Positions 17,938 through 52,388 are shown, numbered from the stretch's first letter. The stretch is DNA of 64,000 nucleotides from Escherichia phage vB_EcoS_HZ_ZJUN2 (PP216084); one strand, 5' to 3'. Numbers and translations: made by a program. Notes: generated from the letters alone by a model not told the origin.

Positions 17938-18799
17938 CTAAAATTTCAATACGTTTTGCTAACATATCAATTTCATCTTTGTTTAAATCACCAGGATCTT
18001 TGCCTTCGGGCAGAAGAAAGTTAGCAACTACAGGTGTTAAACGCGTTTTTGTACGAATTAGCTTGGCCAACGCTTGTGCAGCTTTATTACCCGAAGCATC
18101 ATTATCTAGTAAGATAACAACAACTTTTACACCAGCAATAATATAAGGACTGAACTTATCTGCAATGTTATCTGAAGTGAACTGATGTGTACCAAAGCAG
18201 CAAGAAGCATAGTCTATACCGTTATCCTCTAGGTTCAGCATATCAAAGATACCTTCAACTAGAATAAGAACTGGAGTATTATATCGTACAGGGAAAATCG
18301 GTGGTGAAACTTGTTTTGGTTTTACTAAGTATTTAGGAGGGGCAGAACTGTTTATAGAACGACCCAAAAATAGGATATTGCGTCCAACAGCATCTGTGAT
18401 TGGGAATACAATTCTGCCTTCCCAGTCTGCTTGATGTTGGAAAGCAAAATATTTCTTCAAGGTCTTAGAACTTATACCTCGGAAATCACCTTCGAAAAGG
18501 TAAGCAGATTCAGGAATTGCAAGATTCGTTGATCCATTCCTAATCTCTGAAATCTTTTTACGTACCTGTGATAGTCTTGGAGACTGTCGGTACTGAGTCT
18601 CATTAAAATAATGGTAAATGCTCGGTATACCTTTACCGAAGCCACAACTCAAGCAGTGCATAATACCTGTTTCAGGATCAATACGCAAACTTGGGTGTTT
18701 ATCGTCATGATCTGGATTGAGACAACATATAAGAATATCACCACCTGTATCTTTATACTCAATGCCTTTCAGATCAAGTAGTTCTGTTATTCTACTCAT
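17909..18799 (-). CDS. DnaG-like DNA primase (zinc-binding domain + Toprim)
   Basis: CCLNPDHDDKHPS…HCLSCG zinc motif; Toprim LVEGIFDMLNLEDNG and LLDNDASGNKAA. Confidence 0.75.
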   Translation of the reverse strand: MSRITELLDLKGIEYKDTGGDILICCLNPDHDDKHPSLRIDPETGIMHCLSCGFGKGIPSIYHYFNETQYRQSPRLSQVRKKISEIRNGSTNLAIPESAYLFEGDFRGISSKTLKKYFAFQHQADWEGRIVFPITDAVGRNILFLGRSINSSAPPKYLVKPKQVSPPIFPVRYNTPVLILVEGIFDMLNLEDNGIDYASCCFGTHQFTSDNIADKFSPYIIAGVKVVVILLDNDASGNKAAQALAKLIRTKTRLTPVVANFLLPEGKDPGDLNKDEIDMLAKRIEILVAESLKDLV

Positions 18800-19329
18800 G
18801 AGTTTAGCTCCTCTAGTGCAGGATAATTAGATATATCAAAAATCTCTATAACAGCACGTTCTCCATGTAGATTAGTTCTCAGTATATTTGCTGAGTTTAC
18901 AGCTAATTCTAACTCTTCATACTTAAATCTGCCACCATTTTTAAGGTTGCCATTAGAGTCTCTTACCTGTACCCTCCATTTTTGTTTTTCAATATCCCAA
19001 GCAACTCCTAAGTACCCAGATTTACTACATGCTGTTTTATTTCTACTATTTTCCTGGGCTGTAGCATCTCTTAGATTACACCACCTATTATCAAAGGGTA
19101 TTCTGTTTACATGGTCTACTTTTTCAGGCAGTGTATTCTCCATAAATAGAAAAGCCATACGATGAGCTTTGTAATCCTTTCCATCTATGCCAATAATTAT
19201 ATAGTCATTAGAGTCTTTTCTAGTTACTATACTCCCAGCTTTCTGATTGCCTCTAGATACTTTTCTAGTAAACTCCCCAGTTTCTGGGGAGTAATCAAAT
19301 AACTCTTTTAGCCTTTCCTGTGTTATCAT
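18796..19329 (-). CDS. HNH homing endonuclease with AP2-like domain
   Basis: VDHVNRIPFDNRWCNLR HNH motif; GYLGVAW…GRF…ELA AP2-like segment. Confidence 0.7.
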   Translation of the reverse strand: MITQERLKELFDYSPETGEFTRKVSRGNQKAGSIVTRKDSNDYIIIGIDGKDYKAHRMAFLFMENTLPEKVDHVNRIPFDNRWCNLRDATAQENSRNKTACSKSGYLGVAWDIEKQKWRVQVRDSNGNLKNGGRFKYEELELAVNSANILRTNLHGERAVIEIFDISNYPALEELNS

Positions 19330-20849
19330 ATATCGCTGGCCTGTTCACCTGTTGAATTTTCAGCTTTGTCTTTCTTAGCACGTTTAGGTTGAGCCGGCTT
19401 ATCCTTCTCAATAGGGATAACGAACTCAGCTTCCATTTGAGATATATCTTCCATTGCTAGGTTGGTAGTGTTATCCATTCGCAGAGTTTCCCAGTTCATT
19501 TTAGGCATAAACTTCACGCTATCAGAAGAACGAGTCTTAACGAAGTCAAACATAATAGCACCTTGACCATTATCAGCTTTTGCAGCATTAAGATTAGCAG
19601 CCATGTCTGCGGAATCAAGAATCCCCTTTGACATACGTGTTCTACCATCTTGATCGATCTGGTAAGGAGCTACACCAGCCACGTTATGTTTCTGGCAGAT
19701 AGATTTGAAAGACGAGCTAACAACCATCTGTTCTTTCCAGTCATACATATCAATGGTTTTAGAGTCTGGAAGTCGGGTTTGGTTAATATAGTCCAGTAAG
19801 GCTACTGTAACTTTATCTCCATATCTAGCAACTAATTTATTTAGTTCTACGTCAACTGTTGTAATAGACAGCTCAGGGTCATAAACAATAATCATAGGAG
19901 TATGTAGTTCATACCCTTCTATTAGCTTACTCTCCATATCGTAGAAATCACTCATCTTAGCCATTGTGTATTGTTTAACGAAGTTATCAAAAAGCTCTTC
20001 ACCACCATTAAACATTCTAGCTCTAGTTCTGGCTAATCTCAACAGAGCTGCACCTTCTAGAGTATTATTACGCATTGCTAGTGCTGATACACCTGCTAAC
20101 ATGGCTAGATTACGTCTAAATACTTCATGTTCTTTCATCTCAATTGAGAAGTATGGAGCAATATCTCCATTCAAATATTGCTGAACCTGTATGTTTGAAC
20201 AGATAATGGATTTACCAGTACCACGCCAACCACCAAGCAGTAACGTTTCTGTGCGAGCTAAACCAATTTGAGCGTCGAACTCATTACAAATACCAAGAGC
20301 GATTAAGTTCAGTTTGGTATCTTCTTCTCTCTGGAAAATACGCATGTTATCTGCGTTGAATACTTTTCCAGTATTCGTTACTTTCTCTTCTAATTTTAAG
20401 TGAAGGGAGGCAACTCGGTTGAGAATTTCTCCCTGATCCAGCATTGTTAAATCTTGAAGCACGTCTGTTTCTAGAAGCTTCAGGAATAGATCCTGCGTAT
20501 ATTCGGCTTCTAGGACTTCAAGTGCCTGTTCCATGCTCACTTCTGGAATTTGAGTGTTAGCTAAGACGACTAGAGCTTGAGAAAGGCGGGCGTTCCTATT
20601 AGCTTCAAGCATAAGTGCGTCAATGGACGGCATTGTGTTATATTTTTTATAATAATTCTGGACGGCTTGGTAAATTGAGGAGAAAGCGTCATTAAAATGA
20701 TCTTTATGCAGTTTTGAGAATGTTTCCAATGCTATTTGCTTCTGTTCTGAAGCAAGAAGCATCTTCAACACTACAGCTTGCACGTTAAACAAGGTCATTC
20801 TCCTTTGCACGCTTTCGTGCCTTCTAAATGCAAAAAGGGGAAGGAGCAT
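19326..20849 (-). CDS. RecA-fold replicative helicase (DnaB-like)
   Basis: 507 aa; Walker A LLGGWRGTGKS. Confidence 0.65.
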   Translation of the reverse strand: MLLPLFAFRRHESVQRRMTLFNVQAVVLKMLLASEQKQIALETFSKLHKDHFNDAFSSIYQAVQNYYKKYNTMPSIDALMLEANRNARLSQALVVLANTQIPEVSMEQALEVLEAEYTQDLFLKLLETDVLQDLTMLDQGEILNRVASLHLKLEEKVTNTGKVFNADNMRIFQREEDTKLNLIALGICNEFDAQIGLARTETLLLGGWRGTGKSIICSNIQVQQYLNGDIAPYFSIEMKEHEVFRRNLAMLAGVSALAMRNNTLEGAALLRLARTRARMFNGGEELFDNFVKQYTMAKMSDFYDMESKLIEGYELHTPMIIVYDPELSITTVDVELNKLVARYGDKVTVALLDYINQTRLPDSKTIDMYDWKEQMVVSSSFKSICQKHNVAGVAPYQIDQDGRTRMSKGILDSADMAANLNAAKADNGQGAIMFDFVKTRSSDSVKFMPKMNWETLRMDNTTNLAMEDISQMEAEFVIPIEKDKPAQPKRAKKDKAENSTGEQASDI

Positions 20850-40249: not shown

Positions 40250-40768
40250 GTGAAACCTAAACTAACAAAAGAATTTCTAGAGAAATATCTAGAACTTAGA
40301 GAAGATACTCTCTATTGGAAGCCAAGAGAGACTAATAAAGGTGGATTTAACACTAGATTTGCGGGAAAACCTGTAGGGGCCGTCAATGGAAATGGCTACC
40401 TATGCTTCCGACTTAATGTGGAAGGTTATAGATGGGAATTAAGAAATCATGTAGTAATCTACTGTCTCTATTATGGGTATTACCCAACTAAGACAGTAGA
40501 CCACAAAGATACAAATAAACTTAATAACCATCCTTTAAATCTACGAGAATCAACCGATGCTGGTAATGCTCAAAATAGGGGAGCCGGTAAGAATAATACC
40601 CATGGACATAAAAACCTAGAGCCTCTTAGTTCAGGAAACTGGAGGGTTAGGATAACACACAACGGTACTGTTTACAGATCTTCCGCAATGCCTCTAGAAA
40701 AAGCTCTAGAACATAGAGATATTAAACTTAAAGAATTTCATGGCGAATATGCTAACAATGGAGAATAA
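40250..40768 (+). CDS. HNH homing endonuclease with AP2-like domain
   Basis: GTG start; VDHKDTNKLNNHPLNLR HNH motif; C-terminal AP2-like WRVRI…ALEHRD segment. Confidence 0.7.
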   Translation: MKPKLTKEFLEKYLELREDTLYWKPRETNKGGFNTRFAGKPVGAVNGNGYLCFRLNVEGYRWELRNHVVIYCLYYGYYPTKTVDHKDTNKLNNHPLNLRESTDAGNAQNRGAGKNNTHGHKNLEPLSSGNWRVRITHNGTVYRSSAMPLEKALEHRDIKLKEFHGEYANNGE

Positions 40769-40771
40769 TTA

Positions 40772-41917
40772 ATGACTACTTTACTAAACCTGAACTGGGA
40801 TCCTGCTACTAAAGATTTATTTTTAGGTGATTCTCTAGGAATCGCGGACTATGTTCGTGTAGCTCATCCAGAACTAGAACGACTAGCTCTATTAGCTCGT
40901 TCTCAGTTTTGGACTGAGACTGAGATCAGTCTAGAAAGTGACAAAAAGCAATGGCCTAATCTTCCAAGAGAAATACAAGAAATTACTCTGCTGAACTTAG
41001 CTTGGCAGACTCAGTGTGATTCCTTTATCAGTCGTGCTCCTGAAGCAGCTATTATGCCGCTTGTAAGTCGTCCAGAATTGGAAGGTATGCTCAAACAGTG
41101 GAGCTACTTCGAAGATCTGCATAGTCGTGCTTATAGCAATATTATTCGTAATGTGCTAACTGATCCAGCAGAATTTATTGATTCTGTAACCAAAAACCAA
41201 GAAGCATTCGCACGCATCGCTGATTCTGTTGAACTATTCGATGAACTGTACCAGTTAGGTCAGTATTTCATCGCAGTACGCGATCATCGTGGCGACAATA
41301 CATATCCAGAAACTGAGTTCCCTGAAGTTAAACGTGAAACTCAGGCTAAACTATTAGACGCTTACTTTGCGATCTATGGTCTGGAAGCAATGCAGTTTTA
41401 CGCATCCTTTGCATGTACCTTTGCATTAGCAGAGAACGATATTCTGCAAGGTATTGCTAAAAACCTACAATTAATCGCTAAAGATGAAGCTCTACACACT
41501 CAGATGTCTAAAGCAATCATCCAGATTATGTTCCAGCAGTTTGACAAAGACCTGGTAGATGAAGCATTGGCTAAAGCACCAGCACAGCTTCTGAAAACTC
41601 TGAAAACTGAAATTGAATGGGGTCACTTCATTTTCAAAGGTCGTAGTCTGATTGGCTTGAATGCAGAACTTCTAGAAGAATATCTGTACTTTGTGGGGCG
41701 TAATGCATTTATGCACATCGGTGTAGAATGGCCTAGTCATTTACCAGTAATCACTAAGAACCCCATTCCGTGGATCATGAACTGGTTGGATACTACTTCT
41801 CTACAGCCTGCTCCGCAAGAAATCCAGATTGGTGCAGCCTACCGTGTAGGTCAGGTCACAGAAACGTCTACTGATACTCTGAAAGATCTGGGCAATGAAT
41901 TTGGAGATTTCCTATGA
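40772..41917 (+). CDS. nrdB: ribonucleoside-diphosphate reductase small subunit (class Ia)
   Basis: 381 aa; ferritin-like di-iron fold with EALH motif; adjacent to nrdA. Confidence 0.85.
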   Translation: MTTLLNLNWDPATKDLFLGDSLGIADYVRVAHPELERLALLARSQFWTETEISLESDKKQWPNLPREIQEITLLNLAWQTQCDSFISRAPEAAIMPLVSRPELEGMLKQWSYFEDLHSRAYSNIIRNVLTDPAEFIDSVTKNQEAFARIADSVELFDELYQLGQYFIAVRDHRGDNTYPETEFPEVKRETQAKLLDAYFAIYGLEAMQFYASFACTFALAENDILQGIAKNLQLIAKDEALHTQMSKAIIQIMFQQFDKDLVDEALAKAPAQLLKTLKTEIEWGHFIFKGRSLIGLNAELLEEYLYFVGRNAFMHIGVEWPSHLPVITKNPIPWIMNWLDTTSLQPAPQEIQIGAAYRVGQVTETSTDTLKDLGNEFGDFL

Positions 41918-43899: not shown

Positions 43900-44375
43900 T
43901 GTCGGTTTTCCACATTTACACAGATGGTGCTTGTAAGTCTAATCCAGGTCCCGGTGCTTGGGGTTTTATTGTCTATGATGATAACGACGATCGTTTAGGT
44001 TCTAAATCTGGTTATAATCCTAAAACTACAAATAATGAGATGGAACTCACGGCTATTGTAGAGGCTCTACGTTGGTCAGTTAAAAAAGATAATAGACCAA
44101 TTGTTATCTATACTGATTCTGCTTATTGCAAAAATGGTATGGAAAGCTGGATGTTCTCTTGGCAAAGGAAAGGCTGGAAGAAAGCAGATGGTGAAGTTCC
44201 TCTTAATTTAGAACTTTGGCAGGAAGCATTTAAATTAACACAGCAGTATATCAACTTCCACAATACTAATCCTACCTTTATTAAGGTAAAAGGGCACTCA
44301 GGAATTAGTGGTAATGAAGCTGTAGATGCATTATGTAACACAGTTATTACTGAGCAAGAACTTGCCGAGATGTGA
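43899..44375 (+). CDS. rnh: ribonuclease H (RNase HI-like)
   Basis: YTDGACKSNPGPGAWG, NNEMELTAI, IYTDSAY, KGHSGISGNEAVDALC; start placed at the ATG overlapping the upstream stop. Confidence 0.8.
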   Translation: MSVFHIYTDGACKSNPGPGAWGFIVYDDNDDRLGSKSGYNPKTTNNEMELTAIVEALRWSVKKDNRPIVIYTDSAYCKNGMESWMFSWQRKGWKKADGEVPLNLELWQEAFKLTQQYINFHNTNPTFIKVKGHSGISGNEAVDALCNTVITEQELAEM

Positions 44376-44396
44376 TAAATAAATTAAAAAATTTTC

Positions 44397-44425
44397 TTGC
44401 TTAAAGCCCTCTAATTTAGTATAAT
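44397..44425 (+). promoter_or_regulatory. T5-type promoter bracketed by a 9-bp inverted repeat
   Basis: TTGCTT - 17 bp - TATAAT; AAAGCCCTC (44403-44411) and GAGGGCTTT (44444-44452) flank the -10 and RBS. Confidence 0.6.
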
Positions 44426-44452
44426 ATTCGTATTGAAAGTGAGGAGGGCTTT

Positions 44453-44731
44453 ATGCGGATTTATAACTCAAATTCACTAGGATTTAAACCATTGAGAAAA
44501 CGTGCACAATCACCTCGTCAAATAAGAAAGGCTAATATTGGTGAACCAGAAACACGTCTTCCACCCCCTCCAGAACAACGTTTAGTTTATCTGGATGAAG
44601 AATTAGCTGAACGCGAAAGAAAAGCTCAAGAAGAGATTGAGCGTAAGAAAATGTGTACTGCTCCAGCGTATAATAAAGGAGCGTATCAATATGTTTCCGA
44701 TGCAGAACAAGCCAAGATGGTTGGTAGATAA
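44453..44731 (+). CDS. hypothetical protein
   Basis: 92-aa ORF with GAGGAGGG RBS. Confidence 0.5.
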   Translation: MRIYNSNSLGFKPLRKRAQSPRQIRKANIGEPETRLPPPPEQRLVYLDEELAERERKAQEEIERKKMCTAPAYNKGAYQYVSDAEQAKMVGR

Positions 44732-44747
44732 TTTTTAAAAAATTCAG

Positions 44748-44776
44748 TTGCTAAACGCTTCAAATTCTCGTATAAT
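44748..44776 (+). promoter_or_regulatory. T5-type promoter
   Basis: TTGCTA - 17 bp - TATAAT followed by ATACTTCATAAATTGATAAAC. Confidence 0.65.
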
Positions 44777-44814
44777 ATACTTCATAAATTGATAAACAAA
44801 AAGGAAAACAAATA

Positions 44815-45330
44815 ATGGCTAAGCAAAAAAACGCAAAAACTCAAGCAGCTACTACAGTTAAAACTTTCCCGCAGACTGAGGCTAACCGCAAAGCTCGTCT
44901 GGAACGCCACCTGCGCAAGCATCCTACTGATGCTCAAGCTGCACAGGCACTGAATCGTCCGGCTCCGATTCGTCAAAAGCCGAAGGCTAAGAATGCTACT
45001 CGTTCTGTAACCCGCCTTGTGACCTATGTACAGGGTTATGGCCACAAATCTGTTCCAGTAACACTGAGTTTCAATGCTGGAGCTGAATTGTTCTCTCGTA
45101 ATGGCATGGCCATGAAAGATTATGAGAAAGCAGTTAACCAGAAACGCAAGCCAACGGCAGATCTGCTTCGTGACACTCGTGGACAGTTTGGCTCTGTTAA
45201 GCCAAATATCTTTGGCGTAGAGTATAGTAAAGATAGTGTTCGTGCTCTGTGTTACGGTGTAGGCATTAAGTTCACTGGTGATTCTGCTCGTAAATCTGCT
45301 AAACCAGCTCGTAAACGTAAAGCGAAGTAA
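44815..45330 (+). CDS. highly basic hypothetical protein (possible nucleic-acid-binding protein)
   Basis: 171 aa, Lys/Arg-rich termini. Confidence 0.5.
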   Translation: MAKQKNAKTQAATTVKTFPQTEANRKARLERHLRKHPTDAQAAQALNRPAPIRQKPKAKNATRSVTRLVTYVQGYGHKSVPVTLSFNAGAELFSRNGMAMKDYEKAVNQKRKPTADLLRDTRGQFGSVKPNIFGVEYSKDSVRALCYGVGIKFTGDSARKSAKPARKRKAK

Positions 45331-45371
45331 TAGATAGGAGGGGCTTTCGCCCCTCATAGTTTGGAGAAACT

Positions 45372-45608
45372 ATGCGTAATTTTGTAGTAAAGAATGATTT
45401 TAACCGTGCTAGCACCCATAAGTCCGCTAGAGATTATACAAGACTTTCTAGTCATGAGGTAATGGACACCTGTTATGAAGAGCTGGAAGGTAGCTGGAAT
45501 GAATGGCCCAACTTCTCTATGGAAGAAAACTGGGATGTCAGTGAGGATATGCTTCCTGGTTTTAAAGACCCCAAGAAGTGGGAGTCTATTAAAGAGACAG
45601 CTCTTTAA
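45372..45608 (+). CDS. hypothetical acidic protein
   Basis: 78-aa ORF. Confidence 0.45.
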   Translation: MRNFVVKNDFNRASTHKSARDYTRLSSHEVMDTCYEELEGSWNEWPNFSMEENWDVSEDMLPGFKDPKKWESIKETAL

Positions 45609-45636
45609 TAGTTTTCTACACAATAAAGGATAAGTT

Positions 45637-46338
45637 ATGAAAGTAAAACCATTTGGTATGCTAGATATTGAATCTCTAGGAACTCCAGGAGATTGTGGTA
45701 CTACTCATATCGTAATGCCTTCTTTCGCTTTTGTGGCTATGCATGGGATTGATAAAGACCCTGACTTAGTATTTGCTACTTTGGATGTGCAGGATCAGCT
45801 TAATTCTGGTGCCAAAGTTACAGCATCTACTCTAGCATTCTGGATGGATCAAGCTAAAAATAGCCCGTCTGCTATTCACATTATGGAAGCTATGAAGGAA
45901 CGTAATCCAAAACTGATTGCCTTCCAAAATGGTAAACATCATTGCACTAATAAATTAGGCTCAAACTATGCTGCCTTCTCTATGGCTCAAAATATTATGG
46001 AGTTGGCTCTAGGCGAAAATGCTTTGTATTATGGCAATGGCCCAGAGTTTGATATGACTATCTACTCTGCAAACACGTTCCATGCTGGAACCAATGAAGA
46101 GGTAGTTCCGTGGAAATTCTGGAATTTAGGCAATGTTCGATCTCTTCGTAATCTCTGGATGCAAGCTGGTTATAGTTACAAAGATCTAGAGGCTGAAGGT
46201 ATTAGCTGGGCAAAAGCTAAAATGGAGAAGATGGACACCATTCGTTATGGGATCTATCCGGTTAAGCACGACCCAGCATTCGATGCCCTAGTTGAGGGCT
46301 ATTGTGTTGCAGCTATGATCGAAAAAATGAAAATTTGA
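45637..46338 (+). CDS. putative DEDDh-family 3'-5' exonuclease (DexA-like)
   Basis: 233 aa; N-terminal LDIESLG (Exo I D-x-E) and C-terminal HDPAFDA (Exo III H…D) patterns. Confidence 0.5.
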   Translation: MKVKPFGMLDIESLGTPGDCGTTHIVMPSFAFVAMHGIDKDPDLVFATLDVQDQLNSGAKVTASTLAFWMDQAKNSPSAIHIMEAMKERNPKLIAFQNGKHHCTNKLGSNYAAFSMAQNIMELALGENALYYGNGPEFDMTIYSANTFHAGTNEEVVPWKFWNLGNVRSLRNLWMQAGYSYKDLEAEGISWAKAKMEKMDTIRYGIYPVKHDPAFDALVEGYCVAAMIEKMKI

Positions 46339-46339
46339 T

Positions 46340-46368
46340 TTGCTTCCGGCTCCAAAATTCTGTATAAT
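46340..46368 (+). promoter_or_regulatory. T5-type promoter
   Basis: TTGCTT - 17 bp - TATAAT followed by ATATTCATAAATTTGAGAAAAC. Confidence 0.65.
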
Positions 46369-46409
46369 ATATTCATAAATTTGAGAAAACAATAAAAGGA
46401 AAAACAAAT

Positions 46410-46592
46410 ATGCCAGTATCTAAAAATGTTCGTAAAAATGGTAAGAAAGCTACTCGTAATCTGGGTATCCGTCGTATGGCTGAACGTCAATCAGGTGTCC
46501 AGAAAATCTTTGATCTGCTAAATCGTGCTAACCCTAAAATTGATAACAATAACGATACTGTTCTGCGCACTCTGCTGGCAATTGGTCTGTAA
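46410..46592 (+). CDS. small basic hypothetical protein
   Basis: 60-aa ORF with AAAGGAAAAAC RBS. Confidence 0.5.
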   Translation: MPVSKNVRKNGKKATRNLGIRRMAERQSGVQKIFDLLNRANPKIDNNNDTVLRTLLAIGL

Positions 46593-46645
46593 TAGACCAA
46601 CTTTAAACAAATTCAAATCTCAAACTTCATATAAGGAAGCAAATA

Positions 46646-47284
46646 ATGACTACTCGTATCTCTAAAACTCGCGCTCTGGCAACTATCAAATCTCTGGAAG
46701 CTAAAATCCGTAAAGCTACTGAACAGCAGCTTCTGATCGCTGTTGGCGAAGGTAAGGATAAAAACCAGGTTGTAGTTGGCGCTGCAATCGAAGTAGCTGA
46801 TCTGTCTACTCGTATTAAGGCAGATTTCCAATCTCTCCTGGATATGATGTCCCAGCGTGATCGTATCAAAGCCGCTCTGATTAAGAGCAATGCGGAAACA
46901 GTAGTTGAGATTGGTTCTCGTAAGATGACTGTTGCGGAAGCAATTGAAGCTAAGCGTTCTATGGAACTTAAAGCCCAACTGCTGGCTAATATGCGTAAGC
47001 AGTTCCATGCCGCTACGGTTAAGTTTAATACGCAGAAAGCACAGTTTGATGCTAAATATGAGCGTTTGCAGGATAGCATGGCTACCCGCGATAAGAAAAC
47101 TTCCGAAGATGAAGTTAAAATGCAGCTCAACCTGCTGGAACTCAAGAATACTCCATTCTTGATTGATCCGCTGGAACTGGAAAAGCTGATTAAGCAGCAT
47201 GACGAGGAATATCAGGACTTTGCAACAAATGTTGACTTTGTTCTGTCCGAGTCTAACGCCTCTACCTTCATTGAAGTAGAGTAA
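46646..47284 (+). CDS. hypothetical coiled-coil protein
   Basis: 212 aa; AGGAAGCAAAT RBS; the longer antisense ORFs over the same region were rejected. Confidence 0.55.
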   Translation: MTTRISKTRALATIKSLEAKIRKATEQQLLIAVGEGKDKNQVVVGAAIEVADLSTRIKADFQSLLDMMSQRDRIKAALIKSNAETVVEIGSRKMTVAEAIEAKRSMELKAQLLANMRKQFHAATVKFNTQKAQFDAKYERLQDSMATRDKKTSEDEVKMQLNLLELKNTPFLIDPLELEKLIKQHDEEYQDFATNVDFVLSESNASTFIEVE

Positions 47285-47667
47285 TAATTTAAAAGCTAGT
47301 AAATCGGTAGACGAAAGCCCAAGCATCTTACCTCGCAGCAGCGGTTGAAATACGAGGTTAAATAGGACCGCTGACCATACTATAAAGTATAATCTATTGG
47401 AGATTATGTTTATTACACCAGCCTTTTAAGCTGACACGTAAGAACAAAGCGTCGTTGATATTACCGACACAACTTCAAAGATCAACATTTAAGTATGAAA
47501 GCTGAAAAGTTTAAAGAACTCAAACTTCTAAACTTCTAAATCTAAAAGATGCAAAGTATTCGTTGATGATTCAAACCCTAGATCAAAGGTACATGGCTCA
47601 TAAGATATGGCCTGTGGCGCCTCTAGGCTGTTTATCGGTTTACTAGTTTCACAATTTAAAAATGTAT

Positions 47668-47696
47668 TTGCTAATCTACTAAATTATATGTATAAT
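47668..47696 (+). promoter_or_regulatory. T5-type promoter
   Basis: TTGCTA - 17 bp - TATAAT followed by ATATTTTTAAATTGATGAAAC. Confidence 0.65.
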
Positions 47697-47726
47697 ATAT
47701 TTTTAAATTGATGAAACGAGGCTATT

Positions 47727-48550
47727 ATGGGTAAATTACAAAAACAAATACTACCATATATAGATTATATTCGAGAAATTATAGAGTATAATCCTTATAC
47801 CGGTAAATTATTTTATAAGCCTAATAAATACAAGAATAAAACTTGGCACACCCTATATGCTGGGAGAGAGAGATATGTAGTAAGAACTCTGATGGGTATA
47901 TCAGAGTTAGTTTGCTCTTAGATAACAAACCCACAATTATTTATGGACACCGAATAGCGTGGTTGCTACATTATGGTGAAGAGCCGCCTCATATGATCGA
48001 CCATATAAATACCATACCGTGGGATAACAGAATTATTAATTTAAGAGAGACAAATTTTAAGTTAAATAGAATTAATACTAATAAAACCATAGGTGTAGAA
48101 CTCCTCCCAGAGGGTTTTGTATATAGCATTACATTAGATGGAAAGTTCTTCGTATCTCCTGGCTTCACCACTTTCGAACAAGCTAAAGGGGAAAGAGAAA
48201 AACTAGTAAATGGCTTATGTAACGCAGAAATTGGGAAGCAGACCAATATCCTAATAGACGATGTTAGAAATCTACCTGAAATGTCTATTATTTGTCGTAC
48301 AGTTGTATGTGCGCTAGAATTATCAGACGCGTTTAGTTTCACAGGCTCATACCTATTTATGGACTCAGATCTAGGAGATCCAGAGGTACAAGGAAAAGAT
48401 TTATTAGATCATATACTATTTTTAGGTCAAAGACCTTTAAAAGTGGTTTTAGTAACATCTAACCCCGTTGACGCAGAGTACATGAGAGGTACTCTTACAT
48501 CTTATGGATACAGAGAAAATCCCAATAGATTAGAATATGATCTATTTTAA
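47727..48550 (+). pseudogene. HNH homing endonuclease gene split by a -1 frameshift at a (GA)n tract
   Basis: N-terminal part in frame 0 (47727-47921) and HNH-containing part (…DGYIRVSLLL…YGHRIAWLLHYGEEPPHMIDHINTIPWDNRIINLRE) in the -1 frame (47843-48550); overlap contains GGGAGAGAGAGA (47862-47873). Confidence 0.55.
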
Positions 48551-48562
48551 GGAGTAAAAAGA

Positions 48563-49012
48563 ATGAAGGCAGCTTTGCTTTTAGTAGCTGCCCTTACCGT
48601 CAGCTTTAGTAGTCAGGCATCGCACGATGCAAAAGAAATAGATTGCATTGCTAAAAATATCTATTTCGAAAGTCGTGGTGAGGGCATAAAGGGAATGACG
48701 GCGATTGCACATGTTACTAAAAACCGTGTAAACTCCGGTAAATTCCCAGATTCCTACTGTAAAGTAGTATATCAGTCTAACCAGTTCTCTTGGGTATCCA
48801 AGAGACCAAAAGTTGATAAAACCGATGAGGCTTGGAAAACCGCCAAGAATTTAGCTAGAGTGATATACTACGTTGATTTACCACAAGATCCTACACATGG
48901 GGCTTTATACTTCCATAGCGGTAAAGATAAACCTTACTGGACAAAGAAATTTAAGAAAACAACTAAGATTAAGGGGCATACATTCTATAAACCTGTTGTC
49001 ACTAAAACTTAA
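48563..49012 (+). CDS. secreted SleB-like cell-wall hydrolase (Hydrolase_2-type)
   Basis: Signal peptide MKAALLLVAALTVSFSSQA; NIYFESRGEGIKGMTAIAHVTKNR…YQSNQFSW. Confidence 0.6.
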   Translation: MKAALLLVAALTVSFSSQASHDAKEIDCIAKNIYFESRGEGIKGMTAIAHVTKNRVNSGKFPDSYCKVVYQSNQFSWVSKRPKVDKTDEAWKTAKNLARVIYYVDLPQDPTHGALYFHSGKDKPYWTKKFKKTTKIKGHTFYKPVVTKT

Positions 49013-49020
49013 AAATTTAC

Positions 49021-49049
49021 TTGCTTAAATACTTAAATTTCCGTATAAT
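49021..49049 (+). promoter_or_regulatory. T5-type promoter
   Basis: TTGCTT - 17 bp - TATAAT followed by ACTTCCATAAATTAATGAGAGG. Confidence 0.65.
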
Positions 49050-49080
49050 ACTTCCATAAATTAATGAGAGGAAGCGAAAT

Positions 49081-49251
49081 ATGAAATCAGTTGTAATTAT
49101 TGGTGTTAACACTCGCGGTATTCGTACTACGAAAACTGTTAAAACTTCTAACGTTGCTGAAATCACTATGAACCCTAAAAAGTTTGATTTCGCCAAAGTC
49201 TCAGCAGTTATGACAGAACAATCTTTTAACCAAGCATTAGGAATGAAGTAA
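49081..49251 (+). CDS. small hypothetical protein
   Basis: 56-aa ORF (below the 60-aa track cut-off) with GAGAGGAAG RBS; stop overlaps the next start. Confidence 0.45.
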   Translation: MKSVVIIGVNTRGIRTTKTVKTSNVAEITMNPKKFDFAKVSAVMTEQSFNQALGMK

Positions 49252-49694
49252 TGGAAGAGAATATTTTAGATGTTTTGCGTAGAGCTTTGCAGGATTCTAA
49301 GTTTAATGGTTCTGATAAAGAAGTCGCTAAAAGCTATCAGACCATAATCGGGGATCTTCAGCGTATTGATAAAGATTTCATCACTTCTGAACAATTTGTG
49401 TCTTATCTCAAAGCTCAACTAAAAAGCATTAACCAGATGAAAGCTAAACTTCATGGTCAAGATCTCGATAGTTATAGCTTACAGTCTGCTCAGTATGAGT
49501 ATATTCTAAATAAATGGTTGCAGGAGTATCTGCCTCCTCAGTTATCTGATACTGAGATTCGTAAATACTTTGCAGAATTAGTTAAGCTAAACCCTGGAAT
49601 TACAAAGGGTATGCTGATGAAAGCGATTAAGGAAGAATTTCCTGGGCGTTATGATGGTGGTACTGCTGCTCAGATTGCTGGCGAATTTAATTAA
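49251..49694 (+). CDS. hypothetical protein, GatB/YqeY-domain-like
   Basis: 147 aa; C-terminal …FPGRYDGGTAAQIAGEF resembles YqeY-type domain ends (weak). Confidence 0.45.
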   Translation: MEENILDVLRRALQDSKFNGSDKEVAKSYQTIIGDLQRIDKDFITSEQFVSYLKAQLKSINQMKAKLHGQDLDSYSLQSAQYEYILNKWLQEYLPPQLSDTEIRKYFAELVKLNPGITKGMLMKAIKEEFPGRYDGGTAAQIAGEFN

Positions 49695-49702
49695 AAATTT
49701 AT

Positions 49703-49731
49703 TTGCTAAATGCCTTTAAATTCTGTATAAT
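49703..49731 (+). promoter_or_regulatory. T5-type promoter driving an ORF-free ~0.8-kb region
   Basis: TTGCTA - 17 bp - TATAAT followed by ATATTCATAAATTAGGGAAC. Confidence 0.65.
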
Positions 49732-49954
49732 ATATTCATAAATTAGGGAACAGCGAGCCGATTACGCTGAATGCAGAATCCCAACCGGAGCGCATTGAAT
49801 AGAGTCGGTGGGTTAGTTGTAAAACTAGTACACAGGGGGCGGCAATCCCGGTTAGTGGCTAGAACGTGTAAAATGAGGCGTCTGAAACCTCTCCCCTAAA
49901 CTCTTCTCTAATTTATAAATAGTGGGGTGTGGAAATCACTTATGTAGTAACACT

Positions 49955-50026
49955 GCCGATCTAGTATAAACGGTATTATCAAGCCGTAACTGGTGGAAGA
50001 TGTAGGTTCGAATCCTACGATCGGTA
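49955..50026 (+). other. tRNA-like element with aberrant anticodon arm (possible pseudo-tRNA)
   Basis: 7-bp acceptor pairing GCCGATC/GATCGGT and perfect T-arm GTAGG-TTCGAAT-CCTAC, but no 5-bp anticodon stem with U33 and no encoded CCA. Confidence 0.3.
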
Positions 50027-50527
50027 AGAACTGGATAACTGGTGCTTTTAACGTAAAAGCTTCCGAGGTTAGTTGCGCACTGCCTAAACCACGCGGTAGT
50101 TGGTTCCAGACTAACCAACCAGTCTGCTGAATAGTTTTATTACGATTTAACTATGTCCAGGCTAAAGAAGAACTTTAGAAGGTATTCTAGGTAGTGAAGT
50201 TTTTCCTCCATATCGGAGTAGTTTTTCAAGCTACCAACAAAGTGGGAAATGCTGACATGAGAGATGTCACTAATGGTGCACAATAGCACAGGTAATTCGC
50301 GATAACTCCTGTTGAGTAGCAGCAAAAGGCGGGAAGTCATGACCCCAAGCCTAACCGAGTCCTCAATATACCGCAGGACATAACCACTAAGTCACCCTGA
50401 CTTAAACTGGAAAATAATAGACGTTACTGTATTTTGTCTTGAAATACTTAATGAGTGAGACTTATGACTCTCCCGGTATCGTCTGTATTTTTAAGAGTTT
50501 TTACGAGAGTTCTTAAAAATACTTAAA

Positions 50528-50602
50528 CGGGGTGTAGTCTAAGGGAGAGGCAGGAGTCTTCTAAATTCCTTTATGCAGGTTCGAATCCTGTCACCTCGGC
50601 CA
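50528..50602 (+). tRNA. tRNA-Arg (anticodon TCT)
   Basis: Hand-folded cloverleaf: acceptor CGGGGTG/CACCTCG, anticodon loop CTTCTAA, T-loop TTCGAAT, encoded CCA. Confidence 0.65.
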
Positions 50603-50636
50603 ATTTTATTAACTGTAACTAAAACAAAGGAAATAT

Positions 50637-51584
50637 ATGTTTGCTACTAAAAACACTAAAGAACTGACTTATGAGCAAAAATTGATGCGTAATATCAAAC
50701 GTTGGGGTATTGGTGTTGCAGTTGGTTTGGTAGGTTTAGTTCTGGCCCTTAACTCCTATACTGTGGTTCAAGACGGTACTGTTAAAACCCAGACTTTCCT
50801 GGGTAAAGTTGACCCTAGCCCAGTATTACCAGGCTTTCATATTGTAAATCCTTTTGCTTCTTTCGATACTTTTAGTACTAAAGATATTGCTGTAAAATTA
50901 GATAAACTTCAGGTTCCTAGCCAGGATAAGTTTAAATCCACTGTTGACCTGACTGTTATGTTGCAGTTTGATGGTTCTAAGGCACCGATCAACCGTATTA
51001 ATGCAGGTACTCAGGATCAGGCGTTAGACAAATATGTAACTGAAAAATTACTGTCTACCATCCGTGAGTTTGGTAAGTCTGTACCTAAAGCACAAGATTT
51101 GTTTGATGCTAAAATTCAAGCACAATTACAAACTGCAATTCAACAGGAAGTTGAAGAGTATGCACGCCCTTATGGTTACACAGTTAAGCAAGTGTTCCTT
51201 CAGGATATCACATTACCACCGGTAATTATGGAACAGGTACAGAATACCAAAGTTCGTGAAGAACAAGTTAATGCTGCGAAAGCTGAATTGGCTCGTGTTG
51301 AACAAGAAGCACAGCAGAAGGTTAAACAAGCAGAAGCAGATCGTGAAGCTCGTAACAACCAAGCTATTGCAAACGAACGTGATGCAGATGCTAAACTGTA
51401 TGCAGCTAAGAAAGAAGCCGAAGCTAACGCCGCTCTGCAACGTACTATTACTCCTGAGATGATTCGCTGGAAACAACTAGAAGTTGAAATGACTCGTGCT
51501 CAGAAGTATCAAGGTGGTGTGCCGCAAACAGTAGTTGGCACTGGGTACGATGGCCGGATGATTATGGATATGCGTAACAAGTAA
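50637..51584 (+). CDS. SPFH/band-7 (prohibitin-like) membrane protein
   Basis: 315 aa; N-terminal TM helix WGIGVAVGLVGLVLAL; Ala/Glu/Gln-rich coiled coil. Confidence 0.6.
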   Translation: MFATKNTKELTYEQKLMRNIKRWGIGVAVGLVGLVLALNSYTVVQDGTVKTQTFLGKVDPSPVLPGFHIVNPFASFDTFSTKDIAVKLDKLQVPSQDKFKSTVDLTVMLQFDGSKAPINRINAGTQDQALDKYVTEKLLSTIREFGKSVPKAQDLFDAKIQAQLQTAIQQEVEEYARPYGYTVKQVFLQDITLPPVIMEQVQNTKVREEQVNAAKAELARVEQEAQQKVKQAEADREARNNQAIANERDADAKLYAAKKEAEANAALQRTITPEMIRWKQLEVEMTRAQKYQGGVPQTVVGTGYDGRMIMDMRNK

Positions 51585-51608
51585 TTCCCACACGTAATAT
51601 TCGAAGTA

Positions 51609-51648
51609 AGCCCTGTGTTCCCTGGAGAGCGCAGGGCTTTTCTGTTTT
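51609..51648 (+). terminator. intrinsic terminator
   Basis: Stem AAGCCCTG/CAGGGCTT followed by TTTTCTGTTTT. Confidence 0.7.
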
Positions 51649-51810
51649 AAGGTAGAGGATAAGTGTGTCTCTTTGGTCACTCAGCTATGACAAATACTTT
51701 ACACTATATCACATTGAAAATCAAGTGGGGATAACAATTTTGGGGTCTATCCACTTACCTGCTACCATTAAGCATCCTGTTATTTTCCTCTAAAAAGTTA
51801 AAAAATTCAA

Positions 51811-51839
51811 TTGCTTGAATGCTAAATTCTCTGTATAAT
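51811..51839 (+). promoter_or_regulatory. T5-type promoter
   Basis: TTGCTT - 17 bp - TATAAT followed by ATATTTATAAATTTGAGAGAGG. Confidence 0.65.
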
Positions 51840-51869
51840 ATATTTATAAATTTGAGAGAGGAATCTAGT

Positions 51870-52388
51870 ATGACTGTTGATGAACTAACAGAACATCTCT
51901 TATCTAGAGGGTTTGATACAGATAAGTATCATTGCTGGTTAAGCCAGGAAGGATGGCTAACAGTCCCGTTGTATGACTTCTCTGGGATGTTGAGAGGCTA
52001 TCAAACTTATAATCCTTCTGCTCCAAAAGGTCATGGTAAGTGTCCCTTTGAAGCTAAATATTTTACTTATTCTACTACCCAGTGTGTATGGGGATTAGAA
52101 ACTCTCAATGGAGATGAAAAAGTAGTATTGATTGCTGAATCTGTATTTAAGGCAGTTGCGTTACATAACGCTGGTTATCCAGCCCTGGCAATGTTGGGTT
52201 CTTCCCCCGGAAAAGCATTATTAAAGCAATTGAAATTATTACCTTTTAAATTGGTAGCTGTAGGAGATAATGATCCTGCGGGTGAAAAATTTGCTAGAAA
52301 ATTAAACGGCTTTGTTTCTCCTGTAGATGTAGATGAGATGTCTACCGAAAACTTGAAAAATTTTCTTGCTATGAAGCTAAATTTCTAA
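51870..52388 (+). CDS. small Toprim-domain protein
   Basis: Start at the ATG behind GAGAGAGGAATC; VVLIAESVFKAVAL…VAVGDNDPAGEK Toprim acidic motifs. Confidence 0.55.
   Translation: MTVDELTEHLLSRGFDTDKYHCWLSQEGWLTVPLYDFSGMLRGYQTYNPSAPKGHGKCPFEAKYFTYSTTQCVWGLETLNGDEKVVLIAESVFKAVALHNAGYPALAMLGSSPGKALLKQLKLLPFKLVAVGDNDPAGEKFARKLNGFVSPVDVDEMSTENLKNFLAMKLNF

Follow-up and report, generated by a model that had tools for sequence, protein, structure and literature searches.

A one-unit GA expansion splits an HNH-cREC fusion gene in the genome record of the T5-like Escherichia phage vB_EcoS_HZ_ZJUN2, probably as a very recent slippage mutation

The sequence studied here, referred to below as the window, is a stretch of 64,000 nucleotides of AT-rich, T5-like phage DNA from Escherichia phage vB_EcoS_HZ_ZJUN2, whose GenBank record is 110,208 bp long. 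On the + strand, an ORF in frame 0 runs from the ATG at 47727 to the TAG at 47919-47921 and encodes 64 aa (MGKLQ...TLYAGRE plus 16 out-of-frame residues); its codons 1-48 are the genuine N-terminus of an HNH protein, and codons 49-64 are out of frame and end in the TAG. The -1 frame is open over 47843-48550 with its stop at 48548-48550, and reads ...EREICSKNSDGYIRVS...HRIAWLL...IDHINTIPWDNRIINLR..., so that 47843-47921 is the exact overlap of the two ORFs. Both frames meet at GGGAGAGAGAGA (47862-47873, + strand), the site of the frame change, in which the (GA)5 run occupies 47864-47873 and which, by alignment and by a table of tract forms, is one GA longer than in any orthologue. The remainder of the gene (47873-48550, + strand), comprising corrected codons 49-273 and the stop, continues in the -1 frame and contains no other stop or indel; its sequence is colinear with that of the 273-aa orthologues, from which it differs at 37-74 of 822 nt. 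In a tblastn comparison of the frame-corrected protein with the window, residues 1-48 match in one frame with 100% identity and residues 41-172 in the other with 96% (E 2e-97), and deleting one GA unit yields a 273-aa ORF colinear with 17 intact orthologues. Because the match is split in this way and the long ORF returns when one GA is removed, the ORF at 47727-47921 and the open frame at 47843-48550 are confirmed to be one gene in two halves, not a chance juxtaposition. This bears out the earlier note on this DNA, which had put the N-terminal and catalytic parts of an HNH gene in different frames overlapping at the tract. Its description of the lesion as a -1 frameshift in a (GA)n tract is exact in the frame relation and the coordinates, and is refined here in one respect: compared with the orthologues, the lesion is a +2 insertion of one added GA unit, which puts the 3' part into the -1 frame. 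No dinucleotide repeat in the 64-kb window is longer than the (GA)5 run, and no other has at least five units; such a run is present in 16 of 100 shuffled windows, so the repeat by itself is statistically unremarkable.

The gene is driven by a sigma-70 / T5-early-type promoter (TTGCTA-17-TATAAT, 47668-47696, + strand), which scores 10/12 in a promoter scan and is identical in sequence to the annotated T5-consensus promoter in AKFV33. A Shine-Dalgarno GAGG (47718-47721, + strand) lies 5 nt 5' of the ATG at 47727, at the place where a ribosome-binding site is annotated in Shivani, and from the promoter region to the ATG the window is 98.5% identical to HNH-less phages. Judging from these intact signals, the window gene should be transcribed and translated into the 64-aa fragment. 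Inside the coding region, 11 nt 3' of the tract, a 10-bp hairpin with a T-rich tail (47885-47908, + strand, z = -1.9) resembles a terminator and carries the label 'terminator' in Shivani. All intact orthologues have this hairpin too, and its conservation is explained by coding because it encodes KNSDGYIRVS. After the frameshift, the only plausible route to the cREC part would be a start at the internal in-frame ATG of Met89 (47993-47995, + strand), where GenBank starts the 185-aa ORF WVX92510.1. Use of this start is conceivable, with GGTGAAGAG upstream of it as a weak and poorly spaced Shine-Dalgarno, and its product would be devoid of conserved core residues and of the N-terminal domain.

The surroundings hold some further features. 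The 440-bp intergenic region 5' of the gene (47285-47726) is 98.5% identical to AKFV33 and carries a short tandem motif, AAACTTCTAAACTTCTAAATCTAAAAG; small ORFs are annotated there in some relatives, and the region has no Rfam match. Over 44000-52000, Rfam returns two tRNAs only and nothing at the locus. A tRNA cluster of 21 genes is located downstream, and a tRNA-Ser with the unusual anticodon ACT is found by ARAGORN at 49954-50027 (+ strand; Rfam tRNA model 39 bits). The corresponding place in the related phage HildyBeyeler carries no tRNA annotation, and this tRNA-Ser(ACT) may be degenerate or atypical.

Profile matches and a structural model together predict three parts in the product of the intact gene: an HNH endonuclease module resembling I-HmuI, a small module of beta-sheet and helix, and a cREC_REC domain. 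In PHROGs, phrog_99 'HNH endonuclease' (E 4.9e-35) covers residues 11-163 and phrog_1479 covers residues 170-263. The HNH_3 catalytic motif, HRIAWLL...IDHINTIPWDNRIINLR, lies at corrected residues 73-107 (47945-48049, + strand; PF13392 at 43.3 bits against a cut-off of 24.8), and the near-invariant HNH residues are H74, R75, W78, D91, H92, N100, N104, N113 and N116, the last six of which reach at least 90% conservation across a 50-sequence alignment and are encoded in the downstream frame of the window. The middle module (residues 121-165, 48089-48223, + strand) is a three-stranded sheet plus a helix in the AlphaFold model, with the homologue consensus SGxxGV...WxAxI...G...LGxFxTxExA; it is presumed to be DNA-binding and AP2-like, and Pfam AP2 is not detected in the frame-corrected protein. 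The cREC_REC domain, a T5.084 homologue, spans residues 173-257 (48245-48499, + strand; PF20274 at 49 bits against a cut-off of 27, and phrog_1479). It contains the acidic receiver-like active-site motifs ILIDDV and MDSDLG, and receiver-domain folds match it with probability 0.9-0.97. For the cREC family, processing of cyclic phosphates or ADP-ribose derivatives has been predicted (PMC9503650).

The AlphaFold model was made for a 96% identical orthologue (P0001) with the 50-sequence alignment, and has a mean pLDDT of 82.8. Its modules are a nuclease to about residue 117, the sheet and helix at 121-165 and an alpha/beta domain at 173-271, joined by low-confidence linkers; the pLDDT dips at about 111-120 and falls below 50 at 167-169, the junction with cREC. 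The sole significant PDB match of the model is I-HmuI (1u3e; E 1.5e-4, probability 1.00, 170 columns). The window copy does not encode such an endonuclease in a single ORF, as its frame leaves after codon 48 and stops at codon 65, and the catalytic core, the presumed DNA-binding module and the cREC domain are all located 3' of the frame change, in the other frame. The frameshift therefore severs the cREC_REC domain too, in a fusion of which the earlier note made no mention.

On the whole, the region 46600-49100 matches 442 T5-like phage records (Demerecviridae: Tequintavirus, Epseptimavirus) with 80-98% identity, and 26 of them, spread across both genera, have the HNH cassette. Homology of the window with AKFV33, at 98.5%, reaches as far as the G in the ATG (47729) and starts again at 48501, 16 codons before the stop; between these blastn breakpoints (47730-48500, + strand) are 771 bp here in place of 263 bp in AKFV33. 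The HNH-less phages have at the same position a 105-aa cREC-only gene (orf082 in AKFV33) with the same promoter, Shine-Dalgarno and ATG. The cassette thus places an HNH module at the start codon of the T5.084 homologue and fuses it in frame with a divergent cREC allele. Every T5-like phage sampled carries the cREC domain in some form, and a protein covering both halves is found in this T5-like lineage only, among 1.84 billion cluster representatives searched. The SleB-like cell-wall hydrolase at 48563-49012 is identical to a protein on two read-archive contigs (L031 and L032) that have the HNH-less cREC allele, which shows that the HNH-containing cassette sits in a backbone common to HNH-less phages. 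The sporadic distribution is consistent with a mobile element of homing type, with putative cleavage and homing activities. The locus, whether with the fusion or with a cREC-only allele, is at 47727-48550 in the window, 1626-2447 in HildyBeyeler (L001) and 1628-1945 in L003. Two contigs labelled as from Listeria phages, OR847212.1 (L014, 'Listeria phage LM 4-11-1') and OR848534.1 ('LM 4-14-1'), both marked UNVERIFIED_ORG, are 96% identical to this region and are probably mislabelled or contaminant. The window has two further intact HNH_3 genes, at 40250-40768 (+ strand, 172 aa) and 18796-19329 (- strand, 177 aa), which are 26-32% identical to the nuclease part of the frameshifted gene. The former is directly upstream of 40772-41917, the counterpart of HildyBeyeler nrdB (ribonucleotide reductase beta subunit), and the latter adjoins a 507-aa gene (19326-20849) that we take to be the replicative helicase.

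We then present the state of the gene in the relatives. HildyBeyeler (intact protein QXV80087.1) and Kenya-K38 have a single 822-bp ORF at the equivalent place, and the window has exactly one GA more. A comparison with intact homologues, which the earlier note had proposed, gives the same result throughout: all of the 17 distinct orthologous loci read base by base encode a single, uninterrupted 273-aa protein, without the extra GA. The tract is GGGAGAGAAATATG at 14 loci, GGGAGAGAGATATG in Kenya-K38 and Kenya-K44 and GGTAGAGAAATATG in RN29, and only the window has the form GGGAGAGAGAGATATG. In two more distant orthologues, taken from read-archive assemblies, the tract reads GGGAAAGAAATATG and GGGAAAGAGATATG. 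Expressed as tract forms, the relatives have GGGAAAGAAATA, GGGAAAGAGATA, GGGAGAGAAATA or GGGAGAGAGATA, and the more distant orthologues GGGAAAGAAATA or GGGAAAGAGATA. Uninterrupted runs outside the window have four, three or fewer units, always in frame, and differ by point substitutions only; in most relatives the tract is broken, as (GA)3 followed by AA or as GGGAAAGAA. The repeat encodes a conserved G-K/R-E-I, and the changes among relatives are synonymous or conservative (AAA to AGA, GAA to GAG). The forms GGGAAAGAAATA or GGGAAAGAGATA in the more distant orthologues show that the repeat has been built stepwise by point substitutions, and the gain of a unit is seen only after the tract had reached (GA)4, in one genome. 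All 26 phage records that match 47800-47940 are 2 nt shorter than the window there, and across more than 50 other contigs the number of units is constant and the gene intact, the change being in the window record alone.

The protein collections give a similar view. The 64-aa product is identical to WVX92509.1 of vB_EcoS_HZ_ZJUN2, a singleton cluster on one contig among about 15 billion proteins, and the intact 273-aa protein belongs to a cluster of 39 sequences, a single member of which is present on 40 contigs (53 index blocks). This family was recovered by exhaustive search; a word-index search returned two clusters only. Exact look-ups of the 64-aa and 185-aa products found no independent copies, and an exact-sequence look-up of the corrected 273-aa protein in the 15-billion collection found none. 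A search for the exact (GA)5 allele gave no match in IMG/VR, JGI metagenomes or GTDB genomes; the null is weak for the metagenome collection, which contains only one in-frame copy. We found no closely related sister genome sharing the private substitutions of the window, and with the corrected protein also absent from the 15-billion collection, the age of the indel is not directly bracketed. A literature search for phage ZJUN2 found no paper.

Pairwise dN/dS among the orthologues is 0.04-0.12 in the HNH half and 0.04-0.13 in the cREC half, with dS reaching saturation against the most distant copy, which shows that the intact fusion is the functional state. The window differs privately from its relatives by about 1.2%, and of its 10 private substitutions six are synonymous and four non-synonymous, with 79% of the sites being non-synonymous (binomial p = 0.009 against neutrality). 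Given the lack of further stops or indels and the mostly synonymous private changes, the frameshift is either very young relative to this private divergence of about 1.2%, or not real, and a long-standing pseudogene is rejected on the same grounds. The proposal of a decaying homing endonuclease, made in the earlier note, hence describes one copy with a fresh inactivating indel, and does not extend to the family, which is intact elsewhere with dN/dS of 0.04-0.13.

That the frameshift may not be real deserves weight. In this case the true sequence of the phage would be (GA)4, its 273-aa gene would be intact, and the additional GA would be an error of the consensus or of polishing. The allele does occur in exactly one database record, the indel does fall in the longest dinucleotide repeat of the window, and the gene is otherwise fully open and looks selected, as expected for an artefact in a functional gene. 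We therefore used an assembly proxy, in which 200 stop-free HildyBeyeler stretches, i.e. all those of at least 70 aa in the homologous 70 kb, were compared with the window by tblastn. The 143 stretches with matches, amounting to about 22,000 aligned residues, show one frame split, and it is at the GA tract. A generally indel-rich assembly is thus not supported, with no other frame split in 64 kb. Since an indel-prone consensus is expected to show other splits, a real mutation is favoured over an artefact; moreover, short-read consensus sequences do not typically err by two bases within a 10-nt repeat, which also counts against an artefact. We regard a sequencing indel, which the earlier note had listed among its explanations, as having become less likely by this result, and an artefact as on balance unlikely.

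If the insertion is real, a full-length protein could still be made by a +2 slip of the ribosome on AGA-GAG-AGA or by slippage of RNA polymerase, with the hairpin acting as stimulator. A 2-nt shift on a GA repeat would permit perfect re-pairing of tRNA-Arg(UCU) or tRNA-Glu, the phage encodes both tRNA-Arg(UCU) and tRNA-Glu(UUC), and the 10-bp hairpin is situated 11 nt 3' of the tract. However, a shift is required in none of the 17 orthologues and in none of the 26 records, so there has been no selection for recoding, and the heptamer X XXY YYZ is missing from GCU GGG AGA GAG AGA UAU. The in-frame orthologues have the hairpin just as well, and there it is explained by coding; its z is only -1.9, and it lies 11 nt downstream as opposed to the canonical 5-9 nt. 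A phage-encoded tRNA-Arg(UCU) would lessen pausing at AGA, not promote it. We know of no precedent for efficient +2 shifts or for transcriptional slippage on (GA)5. A programmed frameshift, whether -1 or +2, is rejected on the lack of an orthologue that needs one, the lack of a slippery heptamer and the unremarkable hairpin, and recoding in general appears very improbable.

The tract might alternatively be a contingency (phase-variable) locus, that is, an evolved on/off switch of the nuclease-cREC fusion. Dinucleotide repeats are prone to slippage, one unit gained or lost toggles the frame, and a return to (GA)4 would make the gene whole again. Against this, the repeat has only five units, most relatives have an interrupted tract, the unit number is invariant among the more than 50 other contigs, and the relatives differ by point substitutions in conserved residues. 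A phase-variable repeat is rejected on this lack of unit-number variation elsewhere and on the interrupted tracts. The slippage-dependent switch of the earlier note accordingly loses its ground, the tract being neither conserved nor length-polymorphic elsewhere, and we consider an evolved switch highly doubtful. The wider proposition that the frameshift is real and that some ribosomes or polymerases shift by 2 nt (AGA to AGA, GAG to GAG), or that the population toggles one GA, is likewise given very little credence. If it were true, most of the product would be the 64-aa fragment, accompanied by the full HNH-cREC fusion at a low and tunable level. Such +2 recoding or contingency would be a rare occurrence in a virulent phage, affecting an uncharacterised fusion of a nuclease with an RNA-repair domain.

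The explanation that we prefer, with a probability of roughly 0.7, is that a very recent insertion of one GA by replication slippage has inactivated the HNH-cREC fusion gene. The ancestral early gene at 47727-48550 would have encoded one 273-aa protein with an HNH module, a DNA-binding-type module and a cREC_REC domain. Two point changes would have turned ...GGG AAA GAA ATA... into ...GGG AGA GAG ATA..., making (GA)4, and strand slippage in DNA replication would have extended (GA)4 to (GA)5. Translation starting from the intact promoter, Shine-Dalgarno and ATG would now leave the frame after codon 48 and end at 47919-47921 with the 64-aa fragment. The HNH core, the DNA-binding module and cREC would not be made, or there would be at best a crippled 185-aa product from Met89. 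The copy in vB_EcoS_HZ_ZJUN2 would be a pseudogene of very recent origin, in which a mobile nuclease-fusion gene has lost its function. Three points of this account are inferences: a biological origin of the insertion, its production by slippage during replication, and the absence of a full-length protein. Were the cREC domain essential, its loss would be unexpected and would then count against a knock-out.

The frameshift as such is ordinary: a mobile nuclease gene of sporadic occurrence has lost its function in one genome, or its record contains an error. More interesting is that an HNH endonuclease has long been kept in frame with a T5.084 cREC domain, under strong purifying selection, in two phage genera. 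If the frameshift is real, vB_EcoS_HZ_ZJUN2 would be a natural knock-out in which to ask whether the HNH-cREC fusion, or cREC generally, is dispensable. The annotation can meanwhile be corrected, as WVX92509.1 and WVX92510.1 are fragments of one gene.

Related records carry a different label for the nuclease segment. GenBank annotates residues 3-171 of the fusion as 'intein' in two BASEL phage records, HildyBeyeler (L001 1632-2138) and SelmaRatti (L021 834-1340), and a literature search linking HildyBeyeler with intein found no paper. Like inteins, the segment is an in-frame, nuclease-containing insertion in a host ORF with Thr at +1. Unlike inteins, it sits after codon 2, with essentially no N-extein, and lacks a Hint or splicing domain. 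Pfam gives neither a Hint nor an intein family at E <= 0.1, and phrog_99 (residues 11-163) together with the I-HmuI fold leaves no space for a Hint domain of about 130 aa. The segment starts at Lys3 and ends at Lys170-Gln171, not at His-Asn, only Thr172 at +1 being suitable. The annotation of residues 3-171 as an intein looks wrong.

The gene also resembles degenerating homing endonuclease genes. Such genes, as Goddard and Burt reportedly proposed, cycle through invasion, fixation, decay and loss, and the present gene is likewise a mobile nuclease gene with one inactivating indel in one genome and intact copies in others. Unlike them, however, its family is under strong purifying selection, with no other decayed copies among those examined, and the lesion here also removes a conserved non-nuclease domain.

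With I-HmuI, the HNH homing and nicking endonuclease of phage SPO1, the window protein shares the HNH_3 motif and the fold, over 170 columns of the 174-residue I-HmuI, although the two are only 19% identical and the present gene is not intron-encoded. As in I-HmuI and the free-standing HNH_3 endonucleases, including the two intact paralogues in the window, the nuclease part is about 170 aa long, and, as for free-standing phage HNH_3 genes, its occurrence is sporadic (26 of the 442 related phage records). Unlike the free-standing genes, it is fused to cREC_REC, borrows the promoter, Shine-Dalgarno and ATG of that gene, and is frameshifted. As for the T5.084 family, the C-terminal 100 aa of the window protein match PF20274 and phrog_1479, and the gene has its genomic position, promoter, start codon and last 16 codons in common with T5.084 homologues such as AKFV33 orf082; in contrast to these HNH-less alleles, the fusion has 171 extra N-terminal residues and a cREC domain that is 49-54% identical to theirs.
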